Assembly: GCF_007748075.1 (NCBI RefSeq)
Contig: NZ_CP036280.1
Span: forward strand, 2,910,001 to 2,942,000
Direction of reading: 5' to 3'
From: Mucisphaera calidilacus
Lineage (GTDB): Bacteria; Planctomycetota; Phycisphaerae; Phycisphaerales; Phycisphaeraceae
DNA length: 32,000 bases
Both the position numbers and the translations under genes were made by a program. Position 1 is the first letter of the stretch. Every line of letters begins with the position of its first letter. The notes below the pieces were generated by a model. The model was not told where the DNA came from and did no database searches. It was given only the letters and a program-made list of their open reading frames with translations. This document shows, in pieces, positions 8,909 to 32,000 of this stretch.

Positions 8909-9123
8909 CGCAAATCATCCGCCCAGCCCCACTTCCCCACGACCGCCCAACCCGCCCCGATTGGACAGAACCTCACGGCGCGTTATCTTGACACTGATCC
9001 GGTCGGGGATCATCCGCGAAGGACCGAGCCACATTTCGTTCGCCGGCGTTCAAGTCCCCGCCCACGGCCAGCCGGATCGTGCCCGTTGCCTGCCGACCTC
9101 GTTCCGCTGAGGAAGATGCTGCC

Positions 9124-10494
9124 ATGCGTGTGCTGATGCTGGGATGGGAATTCCCGCCCTATATCACCGGTGGACTCGGGACCGCCTGCTTCGGACTCAC
9201 ACGCGCCCTCAGCCGGCACGACCACCAGATCACCTTCGTCCTCCCCAAAGCCGTCGACGACGAGTACACCGAGCACGTCCGGCTCCTCACACCTCAGGCC
9301 AGACAGGCCGCCGAGGGCGACCGCAGCCCCGAATCCGTCGCCAGCACCTTCGAACCACCCGAGGCCGAACAACCCAAACCCGAACTCGAACACGTCACCT
9401 TCAAAGCCGTCCCATCGAAACTGCGTTCACCCTACCCCGAGGGACACGAGTTCTACGACGGGCCGCCCCAAGGCGTCGGCTTCATCCACCCCACCGCCAA
9501 CATCCCGCAGACCGACCCCGCCGCAGACGGACAAACGCCCCCGCCGCCGCCCAAGGCCGGGTACGACGGCGACATGGTGGGCGAAGCACGACGCTACGCC
9601 GACCTCTGCCGAGACCTCGCCACATCCAACGACTTCGACGTCATCCACGCACACGACTGGATGACCTTCCCCGCCGCAGCCGCCATCGCCAGGGCCTCCG
9701 GCAAACCCATGATCGCCCACATCCACTCCACCGAGTTCGACCGCTCAGGCGAAAACATCCACCAGGGCATCTACGACCTGGAGCGACAGGGCCTCCACGA
9801 CGCCGACCGCATCATCGCCGTCAGCCACCTCACCCAGTCCATCCTCGAAGCTCGCTACGCCATCCCCGCCGAAAAAGTCGACGTCATCTACAACGGCATC
9901 GACCACAACGGCAAACCACCCGCACAGCCCGACCCCGACAAGGACGCCATCCGAAGCGACGAGAAAATCGTCCTCTTCCTCGGCCGCGTCACCATGCAGA
10001 AAGGCCCAGAATACTTCGTCCGGGCCGCCAAACGCGTCCTCGACGTCATGGATGGCGTCCGCTTCGTCATCGCCGGCACAGGCGACAAAATCCGCGACCT
10101 CATCGAACTCTCCGCCGAACTCGGCATCGGACACCGCTGCCTCTTCACCGGCTTCCTCCACGGACCCGAGGTCGAACGCATCTACCAGATGGCCTCCGTC
10201 TACGTCATGCCCTCCGTCTCCGAACCCTTCGGCATCGCCACGCTCGAAGCCATCTCCCACGACGTCCCCGTCATCATCTCCAAGACCTCAGGCGTCTCCG
10301 AAGTCCTCACCCACGTCCTCAAGGTCGACTTCTGGGACACCGAGGAAATGGCCAACAAGATCATCGCCGTCCTCAAACACCCACCCCTCGCCACCACACT
10401 CCGACACCACGCCACCATCGAAGTCCGACAACTCACCTGGGACGGCGCCGCACAGAAATGCGCCGACCTCTACCGCCAACTCACCACCGCCTGA
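9124..10494 (+). CDS. glycosyltransferase, glycogen-synthase-like (GT4/GT5 type)
   Basis: Start chosen at ATG 9124 (MRVLMLGWEFPPYITGGLG, a typical GT N-terminus), with GAGGAAG upstream. EPFGIATLEA is the E-x7-E motif. The track start at 9079 adds 15 atypical residues. Confidence 0.8.
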   Translation: MRVLMLGWEFPPYITGGLGTACFGLTRALSRHDHQITFVLPKAVDDEYTEHVRLLTPQARQAAEGDRSPESVASTFEPPEAEQPKPELEHVTFKAVPSKLRSPYPEGHEFYDGPPQGVGFIHPTANIPQTDPAADGQTPPPPPKAGYDGDMVGEARRYADLCRDLATSNDFDVIHAHDWMTFPAAAAIARASGKPMIAHIHSTEFDRSGENIHQGIYDLERQGLHDADRIIAVSHLTQSILEARYAIPAEKVDVIYNGIDHNGKPPAQPDPDKDAIRSDEKIVLFLGRVTMQKGPEYFVRAAKRVLDVMDGVRFVIAGTGDKIRDLIELSAELGIGHRCLFTGFLHGPEVERIYQMASVYVMPSVSEPFGIATLEAISHDVPVIISKTSGVSEVLTHVLKVDFWDTEEMANKIIAVLKHPPLATTLRHHATIEVRQLTWDGAAQKCADLYRQLTTA

Positions 10495-10532: not shown

Positions 10533-11024
10533 TCACGCCCCGCCCGACGCAAGCAGCAGCACACGCAACGCATCAGCCAACTCACGACGCCGACGAACCG
10601 GTAACGCGTCCGTCACCGCTCGCGCCTCCTCAAATCGAGCCTCCAACGCCGCGTCCACCAGATCACGACCTGCAGGCGTCAACGCCACCAGACGACCCCG
10701 GCGATCATCCGGATCAGGACGACGCTCCACCCAACCCATCGACACCAACCGGTCAATCCGGTGCGTCATCGCGCCCGACGACAGCATCGTCGCCTCCGTC
10801 AACGCCGTAGGCGAAAGACAGTAACCCGGCCCCGAACGCCTGAGCGTCGCCAGCACATCAAACTGCCACAACGCCAGCCCGAACGGCTCCAGCACACGCT
10901 CCACACGACCCTCCAGCCGGTGCGCCAGCCGAAGCACACGACCCACCACCGCCATCGGTCGCGCATCCAGGTCCGGACGCTCAACCGACCACTGATCCAG
11001 CAAACCATCAATCATGTCACGCAT
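10533..11024 (-). CDS. MarR family transcriptional regulator
   Basis: The winged-HTH pattern WQFDVLATLRRSG...LTEATMLSSGAMTHRIDRLVSMGWVERRPDPDDRRGRLVALTPAG is classic MarR. Confidence 0.85.
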   Translation of the reverse strand: MRDMIDGLLDQWSVERPDLDARPMAVVGRVLRLAHRLEGRVERVLEPFGLALWQFDVLATLRRSGPGYCLSPTALTEATMLSSGAMTHRIDRLVSMGWVERRPDPDDRRGRLVALTPAGRDLVDAALEARFEEARAVTDALPVRRRRELADALRVLLLASGGA

Positions 11025-11060
11025 GGGAACAGTCTCGGATCAAATATATTTTATGTCAAG

Positions 11061-11078
11061 TATCTTGATATCAAGATA
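11061..11078. promoter_or_regulatory. perfect 18-bp palindrome TATCTTGATATCAAGATA, candidate MarR operator
   Basis: It sits in the 94-bp AT-rich divergent region between marR (start 11024) and the 311-aa ORF (start 11119). Flanking bases G11060 and G11079 end the symmetry. Confidence 0.5.
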
Positions 11079-11118
11079 GTTTCGGGTACACTCCGTAATA
11101 CCCGCCACGGAGAACACC

Positions 11119-16744: not shown

Positions 16745-16855
16745 GTGGCCGCTCCTTCGTCATTTCTTCCGCTTTCGCAGACAATTTCCGCAGACAGACC
16801 CTGAATATTATGTAAATTATACTCGGCCTGCACACCCACAGCAGAACGAGTGATT

Positions 16856-24124: not shown

Positions 24125-24388
24125 GTGGCACACCCCTACGAGCCCCAAGCGCGAGCTTGGGGTGCCACACTCCAGACCGAGTCTGCGAGGGCTACCCACA
24201 GATCCCAGTGTTTTCTAACCCCCTACGAGCCCCAAGCGCAAGCTTGGGGTGCCACACCCATACGAGCCCTATCCGCAAGCTTGGGGTGCCACACTGCAAC
24301 CGAGCCTCCGAGGTTGCTGTGTGTAATCCACAGATCCTAGTGTTTTCTAAACCCTACGAGCCCCAAGCGCGAGCTTGGTGTGCCACAC
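24125..24388. repeat. REP-like array: four copies of a ~35-nt hairpin unit plus two copies of a 22-nt box
   Basis: The unit is CTACGAGCCCCAAGC-GCGA/GCAA-GCTTGGGGTGCCACAC. Hairpin stems (excluding the flanks) are at 24143-24162 and 24230-24249, a degenerate whole copy spans 24261-24294, and a fourth stem with one mismatch is at 24361-24380. The box CACAGATCC(C/T)AGTGTTTTCTAA is at 24197-24218 and 24329-24350. Confidence 0.75.
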
Positions 24389-24457
24389 CGCATCCGACTC
24401 CCTGAGGCTGCTGTCTGTGTCTCCCCTCACCCCCCAATATTTATCCAAATTTTCACA

Positions 24458-24577: not shown

Positions 24578-25405
24578 ATGAGAAGCCTCACGCTTACAGC
24601 ACTCGCCGCAGCAGCAATCGCTACCGCCGCTTCCGCCGATCCATACAACGACACCTACCCCATGATGAGTAGCGAAGAAGCCGCCACCACGACCTTCAAC
24701 CTCCGCCCTCAGGTCGGAATCACCGACTGGACCTGGCAAGGCACAACGCTGATCGAATCATGGCTTGTTTACGGGGCCTACGACAACGAACCTGCCACGC
24801 CACCCAACAACGGCATCAGAAACTTCTACACCTGGCCAGGTGCAGAGCCGTACCGCTCTGCCAGCAGTTCCAACGGCAGACACTTCGCCGATTCCTCTCC
24901 CTCCAATATCTACTTCGAACATACCCATGCGATCTGGGCAGATATCTATAACAGCGAATCTCACGATTGGGACAGCAGTGTTCGGATTGGTCACGACACC
25001 AGCTGGTACTTCGACACGGACGACCCCGAGCACCCCGAGCCAACCCTCGAAGAGCACACGCACCAGGCCTTCCAGGTCATCACCCCGACAACCGCGTCGC
25101 AATGGACACTGATCGATGACCTCTCCTTCGCGCTCAACAACGAGAGCGGCCAGATCATGTTCGAGATACGCCTGAGCGATCATTACCATGCATCAGTCTT
25201 CGGATTTAACCAGACGGGCAGCCCGAATGACTCTCAGCACGCAACGCCGAACCCCGGCGACAGCCTGATCATGACATGGGATACCGAGTACACGGGCGTA
25301 TCCAATGAGTATCAGGCTGCCTTTGTGCAGGCATATTACAGCGTCCCAGAGCCTTCAGCCATCATGCTGTGTCTTGCTCTCTCAGGAATCCTTGCCCGCC
25401 AGTAG
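24578..25405 (+). CDS. PEP-CTERM-anchored secreted protein
   Basis: Signal peptide MRSLTLTALAAAAIATAASA. C-terminal VPEPSAIMLCLALSGILARQ. Confidence 0.7.
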   Translation: MRSLTLTALAAAAIATAASADPYNDTYPMMSSEEAATTTFNLRPQVGITDWTWQGTTLIESWLVYGAYDNEPATPPNNGIRNFYTWPGAEPYRSASSSNGRHFADSSPSNIYFEHTHAIWADIYNSESHDWDSSVRIGHDTSWYFDTDDPEHPEPTLEEHTHQAFQVITPTTASQWTLIDDLSFALNNESGQIMFEIRLSDHYHASVFGFNQTGSPNDSQHATPNPGDSLIMTWDTEYTGVSNEYQAAFVQAYYSVPEPSAIMLCLALSGILARQ

Positions 25406-25520
25406 TCATCACGACAGACCGTCATCGGCAAACGCCTAAACCGAACAGTTACCAGATGTCCGAGCACGTAGTTGTGAAGGCACATAGATATCTCTTGCCC
25501 CACCAGAGGAGAACGCAGCA

Positions 25521-27730
25521 ATGAAGTCCAGAAACCGCAGCCATATCAACCCGCTACTGCCATCACTATGCCTTGCGACTGCAGCAATGACGATGGCACT
25601 TACGCCACAGCGCGCAACTGCCACCGATCTTATCCTTGGAGATATTCCTCCGTTCGAGACTCTAATGTTGTTTGGGGGATTGGATTATTCCTACAACAAT
25701 GGCGTCATAGGCGAATCGTACTTCGCGGCACTATTCGTATCGGGAGACAATACAAGTGCATCATTCGCAGGTAATTTTGAAGTAGGAGTACATGAGTCGG
25801 GATTGGTACTTGTCGATGACGGGGCAGTCCTGCGACTAGCATCGGGAATGGCGATTGGAGCCGATGTATCGGGGTATACGAGCAGAGCATCCGCTTCGGG
25901 CAGCGGCACAAAGTTTGTGGTAGCGATTGGCGAGACGTACGTCGGCAAGAATGCAGGCGGCAAGCTGGCCATCGAGGACCACGTCGCAATGCACGCACGA
26001 AATCTCTATATCGGTCACGCCAGCGGCAGTCACGGAGAAATGGTAGTCAAGTCATCAGCTACAGTATCCGCAGTTGGCACCAATAATAATTATATCTACG
26101 CGGCTCCTCCGGCACGGGAGAACTGACCGTCAATTCGGGTGCCTCGCTGATCGCAACACGCTTATATGTCGGGGATAAGGCGACCGGCGATGGTGAAGCC
26201 ACCGTATCGGGCTAGAATTCGTCAATCACCGTGGAAGGCTTCACAAGAGTCGGTGTTCAAGGCAATGCGAAGCTCTCAATCCTCGACGGCGCTACCGTTA
26301 TCAATGAATCAATTATGCATGATATCGTTGTTGGATCAGGGCCAGGTTCGAACGGCGTTGTCGTTGTATCGGGCAGTGTATATGACCCGAGCACTGGCGG
26401 ATACGCGGATTCAACTCTGGCCAGCAATCGCCATATCTATCTTGGTACCAGCAGTTCCACCGCACACATGTCGGTAGAAAACGGAGCCAATGTCTCCGCA
26501 TCTCGTCTCTATGTCCGTCCGCAGAGCACGCTCTCAGGTGCGGGCGGCACCGTGCTCGGCAGAACAGAAGTCTCAGGCAAGATCGATCCGGGTGCCTATG
26601 CCATCGAGGATGATGCCGTTGTAAGCACGACGGGCGAATTGAGTATCGCAGGTGACTGCATCATGGAAGCCGGCAGCGCTTTGCGTATCGATATCGCTTC
26701 CTCAGGCACCGATAGCATCAACGTAACCCCGAAAGCCAGCATGTCTGGGGACCTCACACTATCTAAGAGTAATCCCATTCTGGATATTAACTTCCCCAAC
26801 CAGTACGTGCCCGCCCCGGGGCAGAAATACGAGGTTGCCAGTTATACAGGCGATCTCACAGGCGTCTTCTCCAATGCACCGCTTCCCGGCGTCCCGATCG
26901 ACACGACGCACAATAATGAAATCGCCTTGATGATCGAGTACGACACGGACAACAAAGATATTAATCTGACCACACACTACATCGGCGACGCCAACATGGA
27001 TAACGCCGTGAACCTGCTTGACCTCTCAACGCTGGCAAGCAACTTTGATACGACCCCCGCTACATGGTCGATGGGCAACTTCAATACGGACAATACAGTC
27101 GATCTACTCGACCTCAGTGCTCTGGCCACGAACTTCGGTAAAGGCCAGACATCCCAATCACAGGCACCTGAGTCCTTCTCCTCCATCGGCTCGCCCGCGA
27201 CACTCAGCCTTGATGGCGACCTCACCGTCTCCGACGACGGCGGCATCACCACACCCGACCTCACCGGATACACCACCTACACACTCACCGCCGCCGCACT
27301 CACCGACAGCATCGACGCTCTCGAAATCCTGATCGAATCCGATGACCTGAATCAGGAATATCTCGGCTACACCATCTTCTCCAACAACAACGTCTTCTTG
27401 CAGCAAGCCGGCATCAACCCCTTACGTGACTCACAACTGCTCTTCGCCGAAGGCCTGTTGTCCGTCCAGGCCGATGAATCAGACACACTGCTGACTGCCG
27501 CCTTCGCCGGCTTCACACCCTTCACTACACGCGACATCGCCCAGATCGTCATCCCCGACGACGCCACCGCGACTTACGAGATCCAGGCCGTCATCGACGA
27601 CGAACTCTACATCGTCACCGGCACCCTCGGCACAGCAGCACCCCTGACTCTCATCCCCATCCCCGAACCCTCCTCACTCGCGGTTCTCGCCCTCACCGGC
27701 CTAGCCCTCGTCCGTCGTCGCGCCGCCTGA
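25521..27730 (+). pseudogene. disrupted adhesin-like protein gene (beta-helix repeats + dockerin-like repeats + PEP-CTERM)
   Basis: Frame 0 (25521-26126) and frame 2 (26090-27730) together encode one continuous repeat pattern: ...SSATVSAVGTNNNYIYA/GSSGTGELTVNSGASLIATRLYVGDKATGDGEATVSG*NSSITVEGFTRVGVQGNAKLSILDGATV. This needs a 1-nt frameshift near 26099-26102 and contains an in-frame TAG at 26213-26215. The 3' part encodes GDANMDNAVNLLDLSTLASNF, GNFNTDNTVDLLDLSALATNF and IPIPEPSSLAVLALTGLALVRRRAA. Confidence 0.65.
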
Positions 27731-27761
27731 CAGCACCCACACCACCAAGACTGACCCCGCC

Positions 27762-27788
27762 GGGCCGCCTCCAAAGGCGGCCCTTTTT
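27762..27788 (+). terminator. Rho-independent terminator
   Basis: GGGCCGCC-TCCAAA-GGCGGCCC is an 8-bp all-Watson-Crick GC stem. TTTTT follows, 32 nt after the stop at 27730. Confidence 0.7.
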
Positions 27789-27904
27789 CATGCCTCAACG
27801 CTGCCATCATCACTCCATCCCAAAACCGATACTTTCTTTCACCCCCACCCCCTGATTCCGGGGGTCGCGCGCACAAGGACGGTAATTGTGCGCACGTCGT
27901 GACC

Positions 27905-27995
27905 AAAAACAGGCCCTTTTTGGACCAAAACGCTCCAAAACGGACGAAAACGAACCCAAAACGCTCGAAAACGACCCGAAACGAACCCGAAAAAG
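27905..27995. repeat. helically phased A-tract / degenerate 10-11-bp tandem repeat (C[CG]AAAACGnn)
   Basis: A-tracts start at 27905, 27927, 27937, 27947, 27958, 27968, 27979 and 27990. Spacings from 27927 onward are 10, 10, 11, 10, 11 and 11 nt. AAAACG recurs five times, plus AAACG and AAAAAG. Confidence 0.75.
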
Positions 27996-28186
27996 TGTAA
28001 ATTCCTGCAAAGTCGTCAGACTGTGCGCGCCTCGCCCCTCAAACCACACCCCCACCGACGAACTCCCGCCACCCAACACCCACCCCGTGCCCCGTCCGGT
28101 AAGCACGGCCTGTTCAACGCACCCGAACACCACCAAGCCAACCCTAACCCCTTAACTCCGTTATAGGGCGGCTTTTGCAACCGCAC

Positions 28187-28224
28187 TTGACGTTCGGTTT
28201 GGATTTGGGTAACGTATACCGAAC
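28187..28224 (+). promoter_or_regulatory. candidate promoter (TTGACG-N17-TAACGT) overlapped by inverted repeat GTTCGGT-N19-ACCGAAC
   Basis: TTGACG at 28187-28192 and TAACGT at 28210-28215. The inverted-repeat arms are 28192-28198 and 28218-28224. The site is about 120 nt upstream of the ORF that precedes lexA. Confidence 0.3.
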
Positions 28225-28343
28225 AGATTGGCCGATAGAAGTTCAAGACCCGTTACACCCCGCGACGAAAAGAGACTCAGCAACAGCCGGATACCCCAAC
28301 ATATTGGGATCAACCCCCCGGCAAACGCTAGATGGGATAACAC

Positions 28344-28937
28344 ATGACCTCACCCGTACTCATGCTCGGACCCGGCGGCGACTACACCACCGCCTACGAA
28401 GCCCGCCCGGGCGGCCGTCTCGCACGCTCCCAGGCCAACGCCGACGCCAATCAGGGCGACAGCCAGCAACCCGGCTACCAGAGACAGCCCAAACGCCAGC
28501 CACACGACCGCTTCGAGCCTTCTAACCAACTGATCAACAAGCGATTAGCGCATGCCGCGCACCAGCCCGACTTCGAGGAGATCACCCTCCTCGCCGCCGC
28601 CTCGGCATGGCTCACCGAACAGATGAACCGCGTCGCCGAGTCCAGCGCCCTGCTCCAACGCCTCCGCGGCCTGCTCGCTCACGACAGCCTCACCCATCAC
28701 ACCCGTTCCCTGACCGTGATCCCGGAGATCGATCATGAATCTTACGCCCAAGCAGCTACACATCCTCAGTCGTATCAGAGACATACGTCTGGCACGCGGC
28801 TATTCGCCGACGATGCAGGAACTCGCCGACGAGCTCGGCGTCTCCAAGGTCACCGTTTTCGAGCACGTCGAAGCGCTCATCAAGAAGGGGGCCTTGAGGC
28901 GGCAGCCGAACAAGGCGCGCTCTTTGGAGCTGTGTGA
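28344..28937 (+). CDS. hypothetical protein upstream of and overlapping lexA
   Basis: The 197-aa ORF shows strong C-ending codon bias only from 28344 to about 28735. The last 203 nt overlap lexA in another frame and lack that bias. No family recognised, and the true 3' end is uncertain. Confidence 0.45.
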   Translation: MTSPVLMLGPGGDYTTAYEARPGGRLARSQANADANQGDSQQPGYQRQPKRQPHDRFEPSNQLINKRLAHAAHQPDFEEITLLAAASAWLTEQMNRVAESSALLQRLRGLLAHDSLTHHTRSLTVIPEIDHESYAQAATHPQSYQRHTSGTRLFADDAGTRRRARRLQGHRFRARRSAHQEGGLEAAAEQGALFGAV

Positions 28938-29355
28938 GGAAGTCGACCTGCCCGACGAGACGACCGGCCTCAAGCTCCCGCTGGTCGGCACGATCGCCGC
29001 CGGCTCGCCCATCGAGGCGGTCGAGCAACGCGAGCATCTCGATCTGGAGTCGATGTTTACGCCTCCCGGCTCCGCGGGCAACACCTTTGTCCTGCAGGTG
29101 CGTGGCGACTCGATGATCGACGAGCACATCGCCGAGGGCGACTACGTCATCTGCGAGAAGCGCAACGCGGCGCGGTCGGGCCAGACCGTCGTGGCGCTGC
29201 TCGACTCGGGCGAAGCGACGCTCAAGAAGCTCTACCACGAGTCGGGCAACAAGATCCGGCTGCAGCCCGCGAACGACAAGTACGAGCCGATCATCGTCGA
29301 GGCGGGGCGGGTGCAGATCCAGGGGGTCGCCATCGGCGTCGTGCGGTCTTACTGA
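28735..29355 (+). CDS. lexA: LexA repressor (SOS regulator, S24 peptidase)
   Basis: Winged HTH LTPKQLHILSRIRD..GYSPTMQELADELGVSKVTVFEHVEALIKKGALRR. Ala-Gly cleavage site VGTIAAGSPIEA. Ser/Lys dyad context VRGDSMID and ATLKKL. An in-frame TGA lies 18 nt upstream of the ATG, and GGAG is the RBS. Confidence 0.9.
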   Translation: MNLTPKQLHILSRIRDIRLARGYSPTMQELADELGVSKVTVFEHVEALIKKGALRRQPNKARSLELCEEVDLPDETTGLKLPLVGTIAAGSPIEAVEQREHLDLESMFTPPGSAGNTFVLQVRGDSMIDEHIAEGDYVICEKRNAARSGQTVVALLDSGEATLKKLYHESGNKIRLQPANDKYEPIIVEAGRVQIQGVAIGVVRSY

Positions 29356-29405
29356 GCCGGCCCTGTTGAAACGCCGGGGGCGGGGTTCATTTATGATGCA
29401 GGGCT

Positions 29406-30413
29406 ATGGAAGACAGGCCGATCGGTTTGCTGGCGGGGGGCGGGCGGCTGCCCATCATCGAGGCGGAGGGGATCCGCGCGATGGGGCGGAAGGTGGCCTG
29501 CGTGGGGTTTACGGGGCAGTATGACCCGGCGTTGCCTGAGCTGTGCGATTACTTCGAGACGGCAGGGATCGTTCGGATCAACCGGTGGCTGAAGCTGATG
29601 AAGCGGTGGGACGTGGAGCAGGCGGTCATGGTGGGGTACGTGCGTAAGACGCGTATGTATCAGCCGTTGCGGATCGTCCAGAACCTGCCGGACAGCAGGG
29701 CGATCCGTCTCTGGTATCGTGTGTTGCGTAATGACAAGCGTTCGCAGCTGATGCTGCGGGTGCTGGCGGACGAGTTGCACGATAACGGAGTCGACCTGAT
29801 CGACACCACAGCCTTCATCAAGCGTCATATTGCCGAACTGGGCGTGATGACCAGGACCCAGCCGACCGCGGAGCAGCAGGCGGATATTGATTTCGCTGCG
29901 CCGATTCTGGCGCGGATGAACGATCTGGATATCGGTCAGGCGTTGGCGATCAAGGAGCGTGACGTGATCGCGGTGGAGGCGATCGAGGGCACGGACCGGA
30001 TGATCAAGCGGGCGGGGATCCTGTGCAAGGCGGGCGGGTGGACGCTGATCAAGGGGACGAAGCCGACGAAGGACCTGCGGTTCGACGTCCCGACGGTGGG
30101 GGTCTCGACGATCAACAACATGAAGTCTTCGAAGGCGGCGTGCCTGGTGATCACGGCGGGGAACGTGATCATGATCGACAAGGAGGACGTGCTGGCGGCG
30201 GCGGACGCGGCGGGGATCTGCATTGTGGGGATCGAGCCGGTGGAGGGGACGGAGCTGCCGATGGAGACGCTGGCGAAGTACGCCGAGTCGATGGACGAGC
30301 CGATCGAGGCGTTGCAGGGGAGTCTGGTGAAGCCTGTGGGGGAGGAGGCTGATGCCGAGGCCGAGGAGGGGGAGCGTTTTGAGTCAGGCGGATCGGCGCC
30401 GGCTCAGGGGTAG
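29406..30413 (+). CDS. lpxI: UDP-2,3-diacylglucosamine diphosphatase LpxI (DUF1009) with an acidic C-terminal tail
   Basis: IGLLAGGGRLP at the N-terminus. LDIGQALAIKERDVIAVEAIEGTDRMIKRAG and RFDVPTVGVSTI parallel Caulobacter LpxI. Codons are G-ending. Confidence 0.85.
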   Translation: MEDRPIGLLAGGGRLPIIEAEGIRAMGRKVACVGFTGQYDPALPELCDYFETAGIVRINRWLKLMKRWDVEQAVMVGYVRKTRMYQPLRIVQNLPDSRAIRLWYRVLRNDKRSQLMLRVLADELHDNGVDLIDTTAFIKRHIAELGVMTRTQPTAEQQADIDFAAPILARMNDLDIGQALAIKERDVIAVEAIEGTDRMIKRAGILCKAGGWTLIKGTKPTKDLRFDVPTVGVSTINNMKSSKAACLVITAGNVIMIDKEDVLAAADAAGICIVGIEPVEGTELPMETLAKYAESMDEPIEALQGSLVKPVGEEADAEAEEGERFESGGSAPAQG

Positions 30414-32000
30414 GAGCGTCAGGAGTATCGTGACCGCGGCGGGTTCGGGGATGGCGGTGTTGCCGAAGTGGCTGGCGAGGATGGAGAGGTCGAGGAGGTC
30501 GACGGTGTTGTCGCCGTTGAAGTCGCCCTGGGTGAAGCCAAAGACTCCGGGCAGGCCGAAGTTGGCGGCAAGGATGGAGAGGTCGTTCATGTCGACGCTG
30601 CCGTCGAGGTTGGCGTCGGCTGGGAGGAGGGTTGCGCTGAAATAGGTGACTTCGCCTGTGGCCATCAGGCTGGAGGTGTCGAAGGTGCCGGGTCCGTTGT
30701 AGAGGATGGTGTCGAAGGCTCCGGTGATGTCGGCGTTGGTCCAGTCGAAGAGCTGGTAGGTGGTGATCTGGAGACTTTGCAGGTCGAGGCCATCGTCGAA
30801 TTCGAGGAGGAGGGTTCCGGCGAGGGCGACGGGGGTGTCGGGGTCGGCGAACTGGATGATGGAGCCCCACTGGTTGTCTTCGAAGACGAGGCGGAGGGTG
30901 GCGGCGGGGTCGATGGTGAGTTCCTGCTCGATGGTGATGGGGATGGCGGGTTCGGATTCATCCAGGGGGTTGTCGTCCCAGATGCGTAGGGTTTCGCTGC
31001 TTTGCAGGATCAGGCCTTTGACGCGGCCATCGGGGTGGATGGCGTTGCGGACGCCGGCCAGGCGTTGACTCATCCTGTTTCCTGATGTCCTGTCTATGTA
31101 GTAATGACTTCTGCGCAGATCCGAAGCCGTGAAGTCGGTGTTATGCAGGTTTGCATGGTTAAATACGACTGACTGCAGGTTTAGATTGCTCAGGTCCCAG
31201 TCGGTCAGGTCGTTGTAGCCCAAGTCGATCCCGGCGAGATTTTTGTTCTTGTAGCTGGCGGTGCTGTAGAGCTGGCCTGCGGTGAATCCGGAATCGGTGG
31301 TTCTATAGAAGTCCGCTCCGGTGATGAGGGCGTCGGACAGGTCGGTGTTGGTGAGGTTGGCGTAGTCGAGATTCGCGTCGGTGAGGTTGGCGTTGTTCAG
31401 GTCGGTGTTGGTGAGGTTGGCGTAGTCCAAATCTGTGTCGGTGAGGTTCTGGCCGGCGAGGTTCCATCCGGTCAGGTCGTTGGAGTACAATTTGATCCCG
31501 GTGAGGTTCTTGTTCTTGTAGCTGGCGGTGCTGTAGAGCTGGGTGGCGGTGAATCCGGAATCGGTGGTTGAGCCGAAATTTGCCTCGGTGATGATGGCGT
31601 CGGACAGGTCGGTGTTGGTGAGGGTGGCGTTGTATAAATATGCGTCGGTGAGGTTGGCGTTGTTCAGGTCGGTGTTGGTGAGGTTCTGGCCGGCGAGGTT
31701 CCATCCGGTCAAGTCGTTGTAGCCCAAGTCGATCCCGGTGAGGTTCTTGTTCTTGTAGCTGGCGGTGCTGTAGAGCTGGGCTGCGGTGAAACCGGAATCG
31801 GTGGTTCTATAGAAGTCCGCTCCGGTGATGAGGGCGTCGGACAGGTCGGTGTTGGCCAGGTTGGCGAGGCCGAAGTAGGCGTCGGTCAGGTTCTGGCCGG
31901 CGAGGTTCCAGGCCGTGAGATCGTTGTACCGCAAGTCGATCCCGGCGAGATTTTTGTTCTTGTAGCTGGCGGTGCTGTAGAGCTGGCCTGCGGTGAATCC
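30384..32000 (-). CDS. pentapeptide-repeat surface protein with dockerin-like repeats and PEP-CTERM anchor (N-terminus beyond the right edge)
   Basis: The frame is open to position 32000; the track M at 31934 is a TTG inside repeat ...GIDLRYNDL. Modules are repeated: ADFYRTTDSGFTA.QLYSTASYKNKNL.GIDLGYNDLTGWNLAGQNLT.TDL. The C-terminus has DANLDGSVDMNDLSILAANF, GDFNGDNTVDLLDLSILASHF and IPEPAAVTILLTLLPLSRRRSA. Confidence 0.8.
   Translation of the reverse strand, partial: GFTAGQLYSTASYKNKNLAGIDLRYNDLTAWNLAGQNLTDAYFGLANLANTDLSDALITGADFYRTTDSGFTAAQLYSTASYKNKNLTGIDLGYNDLTGWNLAGQNLTNTDLNNANLTDAYLYNATLTNTDLSDAIITEANFGSTTDSGFTATQLYSTASYKNKNLTGIKLYSNDLTGWNLAGQNLTDTDLDYANLTNTDLNNANLTDANLDYANLTNTDLSDALITGADFYRTTDSGFTAGQLYSTASYKNKNLAGIDLGYNDLTDWDLSNLNLQSVVFNHANLHNTDFTASDLRRSHYYIDRTSGNRMSQRLAGVRNAIHPDGRVKGLILQSSETLRIWDDNPLDESEPAIPITIEQELTIDPAATLRLVFEDNQWGSIIQFADPDTPVALAGTLLLEFDDGLDLQSLQITTYQLFDWTNADITGAFDTILYNGPGTFDTSSLMATGEVTYFSATLLPADANLDGSVDMNDLSILAANFGLPGVFGFTQGDFNGDNTVDLLDLSILASHFGNTAIPEPAAVTILLTLLPLSRRRSA

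Follow-up and report, generated by a model that had tools for sequence, protein, structure and literature searches.

A phased A-tract array bracketed by inverted GC-boxes upstream of the orf-lexA operon of Mucisphaera calidilacus

The array and its setting at the lexA locus

Mucisphaera calidilacus Pan265T is a plasmid-free member of the Phycisphaeraceae with a genome of 3,486,541 bp (PMC8882080). The window analysed here is the whole 32-kb stretch of this chromosome that was examined, and the region of interest lies between an orphan PEP-CTERM protein gene on its left and the operon of orf, lexA and lpxI on its right. The features of this region are given below with their positions in the window, and a strand is stated where one was assigned.

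26231-27730: PEP-CTERM protein gene, the left neighbour
27762-27788: clean intrinsic terminator after the PEP-CTERM gene, with the array 137 bp downstream
27866-27875: left GC-box CGCGCGCACA, alternating purine-pyrimidine, containing GCGCGCAC, the left arm of a long-range inverted repeat
27887-27897: second GC-box TGTGCGCACGT, alternating purine-pyrimidine, containing the 8-bp palindrome GTGCGCAC
27903-27923: A5/T5 palindrome CCAAAAA-CAGGCCC-TTTTTGG, whose A5 tract (27905-27909) is in phase with the array
27925-27997, plus strand: the array, delimited by repeat search, period fit, the curvature maximum of the 32-kb window and composition; units in order CCAAAACGCT, CCAAAACGGA, CGAAAACGAAC, CCAAAACGCT, CGAAAACGAC, CCGAAACGAAC, CCGAAAAAGTG
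28022-28030: right GC-box TGTGCGCGC, in which GTGCGCGC forms the other arm of this long-range inverted repeat, on the right
28187-28226: promoter/operator TTGACGTTCGG-N10-GGTAACGT-N3-CCGAACAG
28344 onwards: orf, conserved and with no assigned function
28735-29355: lexA
29406-30413: lpxI

The array was a run of about 70 bp made up of seven degenerate direct repeats of 10-11 bp that share the core C-[C/G]-AAAA-C, and the plus strand over 27925-27994 was 49% A, 33% C, 16% G and 3% T. Tracts of A4 began at 27927, 27937, 27947, 27958 and 27968, an A3 (GAAAC) at 27979 and A5 tracts at 27990 and 27905, with start-to-start spacings counted from 27905 of 22, 10, 10, 11, 10, 11 and 11. All of the tract coordinates in the first-pass annotation of this DNA were correct, the exception in its list being the length of the tract at 27979, which had been entered as A4-5 and is an A3. 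Its spacings and its proposal of phasing near the helical repeat were borne out, as nine tracts, including the A5 at 27905 and an A3 at 27999, gave a best period of 10.40 bp with a phase coherence of R = 0.93, and the A5 described as two turns upstream was in helical phase with the array. Seven of the window's 56 A4+ tracts fell within these 90 bp. Phased chains of at least five tracts were obtained in 0.1% of block-shuffled windows (n = 2000) and chains of at least six in none, compared with the observed chain of nine tracts of A3 or longer.

A single array at 27925-27993 was reported by Tandem Repeats Finder, with periods of 10 (5.9 copies), 21 and 31 (2.2 copies, 84% matches), and units 1-3 and 4-6 formed a 31-bp higher-order duplication of 84% identity. 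The phasing arises because of this 10/10/11-bp unit structure with its 31-bp duplication, and part of the window array is therefore a recent tandem duplication. The conserved part of each unit was the heptamer CSAAAAC, separated by variable spacers of 3-4 nt. Across the 19 units of three arrays (that of the window and two found elsewhere, described below) the last three A positions were present in 19/19 and the fourth A in 15/19, with a C directly after the tract in 17/19 and a C two positions ahead of the aligned four-base tract in 15/19.

The description of the region as gene-free was upheld. ORFs overlapping the array had flat GC1/GC2/GC3 values of about 0.56/0.56/0.60, compared with 0.65/0.40/0.87 for lexA, and there were no tRNA or Rfam matches at the array region (no Rfam match with E below 0.3). 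A small protein was rejected as the ORFs across the array carried no codon-position signal and the repeat shifts frame. Fold stability showed no gain over shuffled sequences on either strand (z = -0.71 plus, -0.69 minus), and a structured RNA, a small RNA and type III antitoxin-like repeats were discarded for want of a fold signal, an Rfam match or a downstream toxin-like gene. The distances from the array of about 350 bp to orf and 0.8-1.3 kb to a switch in strand composition, discussed below, also agreed with those proposed earlier. No homologues of the PEP-CTERM protein were found outside M. calidilacus, and a link of the array to this gene was dropped as the protein is an orphan.

The closest LexA sequences came from Mucisphaera-like genomes, with 96% identity in L081, 90% in L001 and 88% in L082-85. 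A glycosyltransferase gene is located directly upstream of orf-lexA in each of these relatives. In the window the two are separated by 17.6 kb of DNA that is rearranged and lineage-specific, with the glycosyltransferase gene at 9079-10494. On the right side, conservation among all four Mucisphaera-group genomes begins at about 28097, in a block that holds the promoter/operator, which was found in at least 35 Phycisphaerae lexA loci. This comparison therefore places the array in lineage-specific DNA, about 100 bp from the rearrangement junction, and neither the array nor homologous sequence was present at the orthologous place in L081, L001 and L082-85.

Predicted curvature and the flanking GC-boxes

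Curvature was calculated as the angle between two 31-bp arms under a single dinucleotide wedge model with the Bolshoy/Trifonov parameters (Bolshoy et al. 1991). The array was the highest peak of the 32-kb window at 74.7 degrees, compared with a mean of 12 degrees (sd 7.3) and a next peak of 41, and this wedge-model check supports the earlier claim of intrinsic curvature as a prediction. A 141-bp fragment carrying the array had a predicted end-to-end/contour ratio of 0.41, which was reached by 0/500 shuffles. With nine tracts at 10.40 bp and predicted curvature, the array is predicted to belong to intrinsically bent phased A-tract DNA, for which at least 4-5 tracts of at least 3 bp at 10-11 bp and a predicted macroscopic curvature are required.

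An A4-5 tract bends DNA by roughly 10-18 degrees, and the array would therefore have a total bend of about 100-150 degrees. Classical phased A-tract DNA, such as that of the kinetoplast minicircle and the curved DNA upstream of strong bacterial promoters, likewise has A3-A5 tracts every 10.4-10.6 bp, and planar curvature is predicted for it as for the window array. Unlike in the classical cases, conservation in the array reaches the flanking C/S and C positions, and a specific inverted repeat accompanies the array.

This inverted repeat is formed by the GC-boxes. The region 27860-27875 pairs with 28022-28037, with GCGCGCACA and TGTGCGCGC as the arms in the window and 146 nt between them. The first and second boxes in addition form an 11-nt inverted repeat with a 9-nt spacer (27866-27876 and 27886-27896, 91% complementary). 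The sequences GCGCGCAC, GTGCGCGC or GTGCGCAC had only three occurrences in the 32 kb, at 27867, 27888 and 28023. The inverted boxes GCGCGCAC ... GTGCGCGC thus bracket the CSAAAAC array in a composite element of about 165 bp at 27866-28030. The palindrome at 27903-27923 was scored as a weak terminator-like hairpin on the minus strand only.

Recurrence of the box-plus-array architecture

A reference set of 1.16 Mb was made up of 85 Phycisphaerae lexA loci (1.13 Mb) and the window. There were 30 occurrences each of GCGCGCAC and GTGCGCGC in this set, and GCGCGCAC was followed by GTGCGCGC within 60-400 bp in only two places, the window array and L075:5975-6241, against a chance expectation that we estimate at about 0.26. 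Both pairs enclosed a nine-tract phased CSAAAAC array. L075 is a Phycisphaerales MAG with a LexA 62% identical to that of the window, and its array (L075:6079-6164) was the only other array of at least five phased tracts among the 85 lexA loci as well as the strongest predicted bend in their 1.13 Mb. The nine L075 tracts had a period of 10.55 bp (R = 0.94) in units of C[CG]AAAAC, and TGTA followed the last unit in both arrays. GC-rich boxes of alternating purines and pyrimidines flank the L075 array, as they do that of the window. No two of the L075 units were identical and phase was kept by a mix of 10-, 11- and 12-bp units, a pattern hard to reconcile with recent slippage alone. No relative of L075 was closer than 56% in rluB, and the distant relatives compared (rluB 54-55% identical) had no array.

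A third instance was located on the metagenome contig L111, which held the only GCGCGCAC...GTGCGCGC pair among metagenome and viral loci selected by the array pattern and totalling 1.52 Mb. This pair brackets a three-unit array and lies beside several more boxes. An identical 9-nt inverted repeat, CGCGCGCAC/GTGCGCGCG, was 100% complementary in both L075 (258 nt between arms) and L111 (187 nt), and relaxed GC-box motifs were enriched within 250 bp on either side of each of the three arrays (Poisson P of about 2e-6, 9e-6 and 5e-6). The box motif was defined after the window had been seen and L111 was noticed through its boxes. L075 and L111 are independent but few replications, with three instances in all. 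Array-like patterns by themselves were common, with more than 120 heterogeneous CSAAAAC-like matches each from metagenome and viral contigs, which say nothing on function, and a box pair accompanied one of the approximately 120 metagenome array matches and none of the viral matches. In viral contigs the box-plus-array patterns were only unrelated prophage regulatory regions.

The three copies shared the boxes and the heptamer and differed in overall sequence. The element started 136 bp (window), 55 bp (L075) and 98 bp (L111) after a stop codon, and all three elements preceded the next co-oriented gene. The window has the A-rich strand as its sense strand, whereas in L075 and L111 this strand is antisense, and when each element was read in its own frame more boxes were on the 5' side of the A-rich strand. 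Placement after a stop codon in either orientation suggests a self-contained DNA element rather than a promoter-linked operator or an RNA signal. Genes of atypical composition adjoined the element both in the window (GC3 0.52-0.70) and in L075 (GC3 0.54-0.56). A Y1_Tnp (Y1 transposase) gene was located 1.5 kb from the L075 element. No transposase or integrase genes were present in the 32-kb window, and no candidate binding-protein, transposase or recombinase gene was found next to the window element by Pfam annotation.

Possible roles of the element

The reading that we favour, with confidence somewhat short of even, is that the array forms the centre of an architectural DNA element that is extragenic, self-contained and sporadic in occurrence, and whose bend brings the inverted boxes together, probably for a protein. 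Confidence is held at this level because there are three instances only, the motif was defined post hoc and the function is inferred. Under this reading the seven to nine in-phase A-tracts would sum to a planar bend that draws the inverted boxes closer across the 146 bp between them, and the repeated heptamers would all be presented on one face of the helix. A putative box-binding protein, possibly together with a reader of the heptamer, could then close a small DNA loop that would otherwise be energetically costly. The outcome would be a compact knot of DNA and protein shortly after the end of a transcription unit. Its architectural role might be to separate co-oriented genes as a barrier to topology or read-through, much like an insulator placed behind transcription units, or alternatively to serve as a recombination or mobilisation site of DNA that passes from one lineage to another. 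The protein binding, the looping and the biological role are each inferred from the arrangement of the motifs, and the element would not be a dedicated lexA regulator.

We know of almost no characterised non-coding genome architecture in Planctomycetes, and the element offers a concrete, testable handle on nucleoid-organising or mobile DNA in this group. Two larger puzzles lie beside it, namely an extreme strand-composition bias that switches inside lexA and a lineage-specific relocation of the SOS operon. A wider proposal, which we consider doubtful, is that the three loci belong to a previously undescribed Phycisphaerae family of extragenic architectural elements in which a bend of about 130 degrees pre-forms a loop between Z-DNA-prone, putatively protein-bound boxes and would act after transcription units as a topological or read-through insulator. 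In its boldest version the element would mark or cause the M. calidilacus chromosome rearrangement and the nearby switch in replication polarity.

The closest analogue in possible working is the RIB/RIP class of E. coli, although the window element differs in the unit size and head sequence that define this class. RIB/RIP elements (BIME-1 type) reportedly consist of two inverted REP palindromic units flanking a spacer bent by IHF. As in RIB/RIP, the window, L075 and L111 elements are extragenic at the 3' end of transcription units, have inverted GC-rich units around a centre predicted to be sharply bent, occur in either orientation and have a presumed architectural or topological role. The bend of RIB/RIP is IHF-induced whereas that of the window is predicted to be intrinsic to the phased A-tracts, and the RIB/RIP units are imperfect palindromes of about 35 bp with a GTAG-type head while the window boxes are alternating purine-pyrimidine sequences of 8-10 bp. 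REP/BIME elements more generally have palindromic units of 20-40 bp with a conserved head and an associated RAYT gene, whereas the boxes here measured 8-11 bp and the only gene of this kind was the Y1_Tnp near L075. In copy number there were two elements in 1.16 Mb of lexA-centred loci. Separate REP-like repeats occur in the window at 24133-24390.

It is also plausible, as the first-pass annotation proposed under the name of iterons, that the direct repeats are read by a DNA-binding protein. Iteron origins (lambda ori, pSC101, R6K) and the parC centromere of plasmid R1, which has ten 11-bp direct repeats bound by ParR, similarly combine direct repeats on one helical face with intrinsic curvature, and cooperative wrapping by a small DNA-binding protein may be a further feature in common with the window array. 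The units of iteron origins are 17-22 bp long whereas those of the window array are 10-11 bp. Unlike these systems, the window array had no adjacent rep, par or initiator gene and no DnaA boxes. No Rep, ParR or ParB-type gene lies beside the array, where the neighbours are the orphan PEP-CTERM gene and the orf-lexA operon, and a BLAST comparison with 72,556 plasmids gave no similarity.

The main rival, which overlaps the favoured reading and which we judge unlikely, is a MITE-like selfish element, either non-autonomous and mobile or what is left of one end of an integrated element. The boxes would then be terminal inverted repeats or recombinase core sites used in trans, the array would supply arm-type or accessory sites, and there would be no host function. 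The distribution is consistent with such an element in that it is sporadic, being absent from the orthologous place in the closest relatives and, in distant relatives of L075, from their rluB loci, and is found in either orientation. Its position about 65 bp from the lineage-specific rearrangement junction, beside genes of atypical composition as in L075, and the nearby Y1_Tnp gene in L075 also agree, as do the first two boxes, whose 11-bp inverted repeat with a 9-bp spacer is like a recombinase core site. An 8-9-bp inverted repeat was present in all three loci. Against mobility, no target-site duplication was visible at 27860/28037, with no direct repeat evident outside the arms in the window, the 32 kb lacked a transposase or integrase, and the three copies were alike only in boxes and heptamer. 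Y1 transposases, moreover, act on subterminal hairpins and not on terminal inverted repeats.

A neutral minisatellite that arose by tandem duplication at the rearrangement junction, with curvature as an accidental by-product of a 10-11-bp unit bearing an A-tract, appears quite unlikely. The absence of the array from all close relatives and the 31-bp repeat, whose 84% identity points to recent duplication, both fit this explanation. The metagenome and viral scans each returned more than 100 CSAAAAC-like arrays, many of them perfect minisatellites or coding repeats, which indicates that such arrays arise easily. On the other hand, L075 and L111 have the same unit core, mean period and inverted 8-9-mer on the flanks, the L075 spacers have fully diverged while core and phase persist, and GC-boxes are not general to such arrays. 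The first-pass annotation held that a lack of curvature or protein binding, together with absence from orthologous loci in close relatives, would imply a neutral low-complexity accident. Half of this applies, as the array was absent there, but a neutral accident does not follow since the composite architecture recurs in two unrelated loci. Even if the element proves inert, the case shows that a repeat array cannot be dismissed as neutral merely because orthologous loci are without it.

Regulation of the orf-lexA-lpxI operon from far upstream, by a curved activating sequence or by an operator array for a winged-helix response regulator bound head-to-tail on direct repeats spaced 10-11 bp, is decidedly unlikely. 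The conserved -35 (TTGACG at 28187) is on the same strand, with the centre of the array about 230 bp upstream, and the L075 array is also upstream of lexA, by 1.9 kb. Direct repeats of this kind are familiar from operators of OmpR/PhoB-family regulators, including the 11-nt direct repeat units of Streptomyces PhoP, the GAAAC boxes of GlnR and the 11-bp repeats of ArcA. Like the array, OmpR/PhoB-family operators have a conserved 6-7-nt core and a variable 3-4-nt spacer with a 10-11-bp period, and as many as about nine units may stand in one array. Such operators lie over or directly next to the promoter that they control and share its conservation. The window array, by contrast, has no recognisable -35 closer than 190 bp, shows no conservation together with the gene downstream and has inverted boxes on both sides. 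Promoter scans and manual inspection of the window and L075 gave no sigma-54 or sigma-70 promoter beside the array and no consistent -10/-35 or -24/-12 elements.

Comparative evidence also weighs against a regulatory site. The -35/-10/operator block is kept in at least 35 Phycisphaerae lexA promoters, none of which has an array or curvature peak near -257, and the conserved upstream block ends at 28097. In relatives no curvature peak was seen at the matching offset (-257) from the conserved lexA promoter, and upstream of lexA there was only a slight rise at -50 to -25. With array and curvature both absent there, control of lexA can be ruled out as a conserved role. In L075 a convergent gene separates the array from lexA, L111 is without lexA, orientation to the downstream gene is not constant and no regulator gene is nearby. 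The first-pass interpretation as a whole is partly supported, with intrinsic curvature retained and the conserved promoter element and the link to an origin, considered next, not supported.

It is very improbable that the array is part of a replication landmark (a non-canonical origin, a fork-arrest site or a terminus) tied to the composition switch. The switch itself is real and chromosome-wide in character. Cumulative G-C fell to about 28800, was flat across lexA and rose from about 29300, with its minimum 0.8-1.3 kb from the array, and the polarity is of the origin type under the usual rule of a G-rich leading strand. All genes between 600 and 24100 (14 plus-strand, 6 minus-strand) had a plus-strand GC3 skew of -0.47 to -0.84, and across the operon this skew changed from -0.47 in orf to -0.03 in lexA and +0.42 in lpxI, with +0.66 in a minus-strand pentapeptide gene. 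No other non-coding structure near the switch is as ordered as the array, and the closest relatives, L081-85 and L001, are without both the array and a composition switch at lexA.

Other observations speak against the link. The orf between array and switch still has the left-type bias and the switch maps inside lexA, most left-side genes would be head-on to replication, and no skew switch was present at the L075 and L111 elements. Within 3 kb of the array there were no DnaA boxes (TTATCCACA-like) with up to one mismatch, and a single match with two mismatches was found in 27700-28400. Switches within 3 kb of lexA were also seen in ZRK32 (L009), with opposite polarity, and in Poriferisphaera WC338 (L011), with the same polarity, and DnaA boxes were again absent from both. 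The array duplex was not unusually unstable, with a mean nearest-neighbour dG of -1.45 per step that ranked about 3050 among 31930 windows (approximately the top 10% for instability), and the least stable sites were elsewhere in the window, for example at 11031. Pfam annotation gave no dnaA, dnaN, gyrB, parAB or similar genes in the window. An origin or unwinding element was rejected on the lack of DnaA boxes, the duplex stability and the lack of origin genes. A dif or terminus site was rejected as well, as scans with E. coli dif and a generic core gave nothing near the switch and their sole weak match, at 16806, was without a XerC arm.

Action at the RNA level, either as a Rho-loading (rut) site backing up the intrinsic terminator or as a protein-sponge small RNA with CA-rich motifs, is hardly credible, as the flanking genes of L075 and L111 would transcribe the opposite (G/U-rich) strand and the array had neither promoter- or terminator-like boundaries for a small RNA nor a signal of structure, although the C-rich, G- and T-poor plus strand is predicted to be unstructured, its C-rich dimers are regularly spaced and it follows closely downstream of the terminator at 27762-27788.

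Promoter region and reading frame upstream of lexA

The promoter/operator of the orf-lexA operon was strongly conserved across Phycisphaerae with the arrangement TTGACGTTCGG-N10-GGTAACGT-N3-CCGAACAG, which was found at 35+ loci including, for example, L019:1257 and L002:1527. The outer arms of this operator (GTTCGG/CCGAAC) are a candidate LexA box for Phycisphaerae. The region comprises:

28187-28226, promoter/operator of orf-lexA
~28283-28320, 3' of the operator, conserved 5'-UTR hairpin-like stretch, CCGGATACCCCAACAT..GGGA..CCCCCCGG
28344-28937, conserved ORF upstream of lexA, showing a coding signal (GC1/2/3 of 0.70/0.48/0.82)

This ORF had no Pfam match and overlaps lexA by 203 nt, its reading frame continuing into lexA, and its counterpart was left uncalled on its strand by the gene callers in L081 and L082, two lexA loci of the closest relatives.

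Strand composition and the position of orf-lexA-lpxI

Strand composition bias was extreme across the window (1-32000) irrespective of gene orientation, and the GC3 skew per gene placed its switch at lexA:

28800-29300, composition switch zone

Plus-strand GC3 skew ranged from -0.47 to -0.84 to the left, was -0.03 in lexA and reached +0.42 and +0.66 to the right. The C/A-rich strand carries approximately 70% of the genes left of the switch, which implies either that the majority of genes are oriented head-on to replication or that this genus has a C-rich leading strand. The switch at lexA was absent in the closest relatives (L081-85 and L001), and a composition switch was located no more than 3 kb from lexA in L009 (ZRK32) and L011 (Poriferisphaera WC338).

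A glycosyltransferase gene lies immediately upstream of orf-lexA-lpxI in L001, L081 and L082-85. In M. calidilacus, 17.6 kb separate the glycosyltransferase gene (9079-10494) from the orf-lexA-lpxI unit (28097-30413), and the lpxI coding strand has changed from C-rich to G-rich despite a protein 92% identical to that of L081.

Other features in the window

Further features were as follows:

10533-11024, minus strand, MarR-family gene
16795-16822, AT-rich near-palindrome AATATTATGTAAATTATA in a divergent intergenic spacer
24133-24390, REP-like palindromic repeat TACGAGCCCCAAGCGCGAGCTTGGGGTGCCACAC, four copies in a single intergenic region
24578-27730, three genes of atypical composition whose products are secreted or PEP-CTERM proteins

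The REP-like repeat includes a CCCCAAGC/GCTTGGGG hairpin and had no match in L001 or L081-83. The three secreted or PEP-CTERM genes had a GC3 of 0.52-0.70 versus 0.8-0.88 elsewhere with weak skew, and the last of them was without homologues outside M. calidilacus; the block probably reflects recent acquisition or fast evolution. The near-palindrome resembles a XerD half-site (TTATGTAAATT) and, as it lacks a XerC arm, is more likely to be promoter DNA than a Xer site. The least stable duplex of the window (11031-11100) falls within the spacer between the divergent MarR-family gene and a DUF3891 gene. A minus-strand pentapeptide-repeat/dockerin gene contains long in-frame tandem repeats at 31202-31866 with periods of 237/267 bp and 30/60 bp.

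CSAAAAC-type arrays at other loci

Further recurrent families of 10-11-bp CSAAAAC-type arrays occurred in metagenome (L103, L135, L144, L185, L194) and viral sequences (L238, L239, L296, L318, L252, L332-L345), with CTGTGGTAAATA then CCGAAAACNA repeats among the other families. Prophage regions with CCCAACACAC repeats were another example, and some of the arrays, in L132 and L143, lay within DUF1376-type phage replication genes. Near the boxed array of the Phycisphaerales MAG locus L075, the following gene was located 1.5 kb from the element in a low-GC3 block:

L075:3805-4527, Y1_Tnp transposase gene (IS200-like or RAYT-like)
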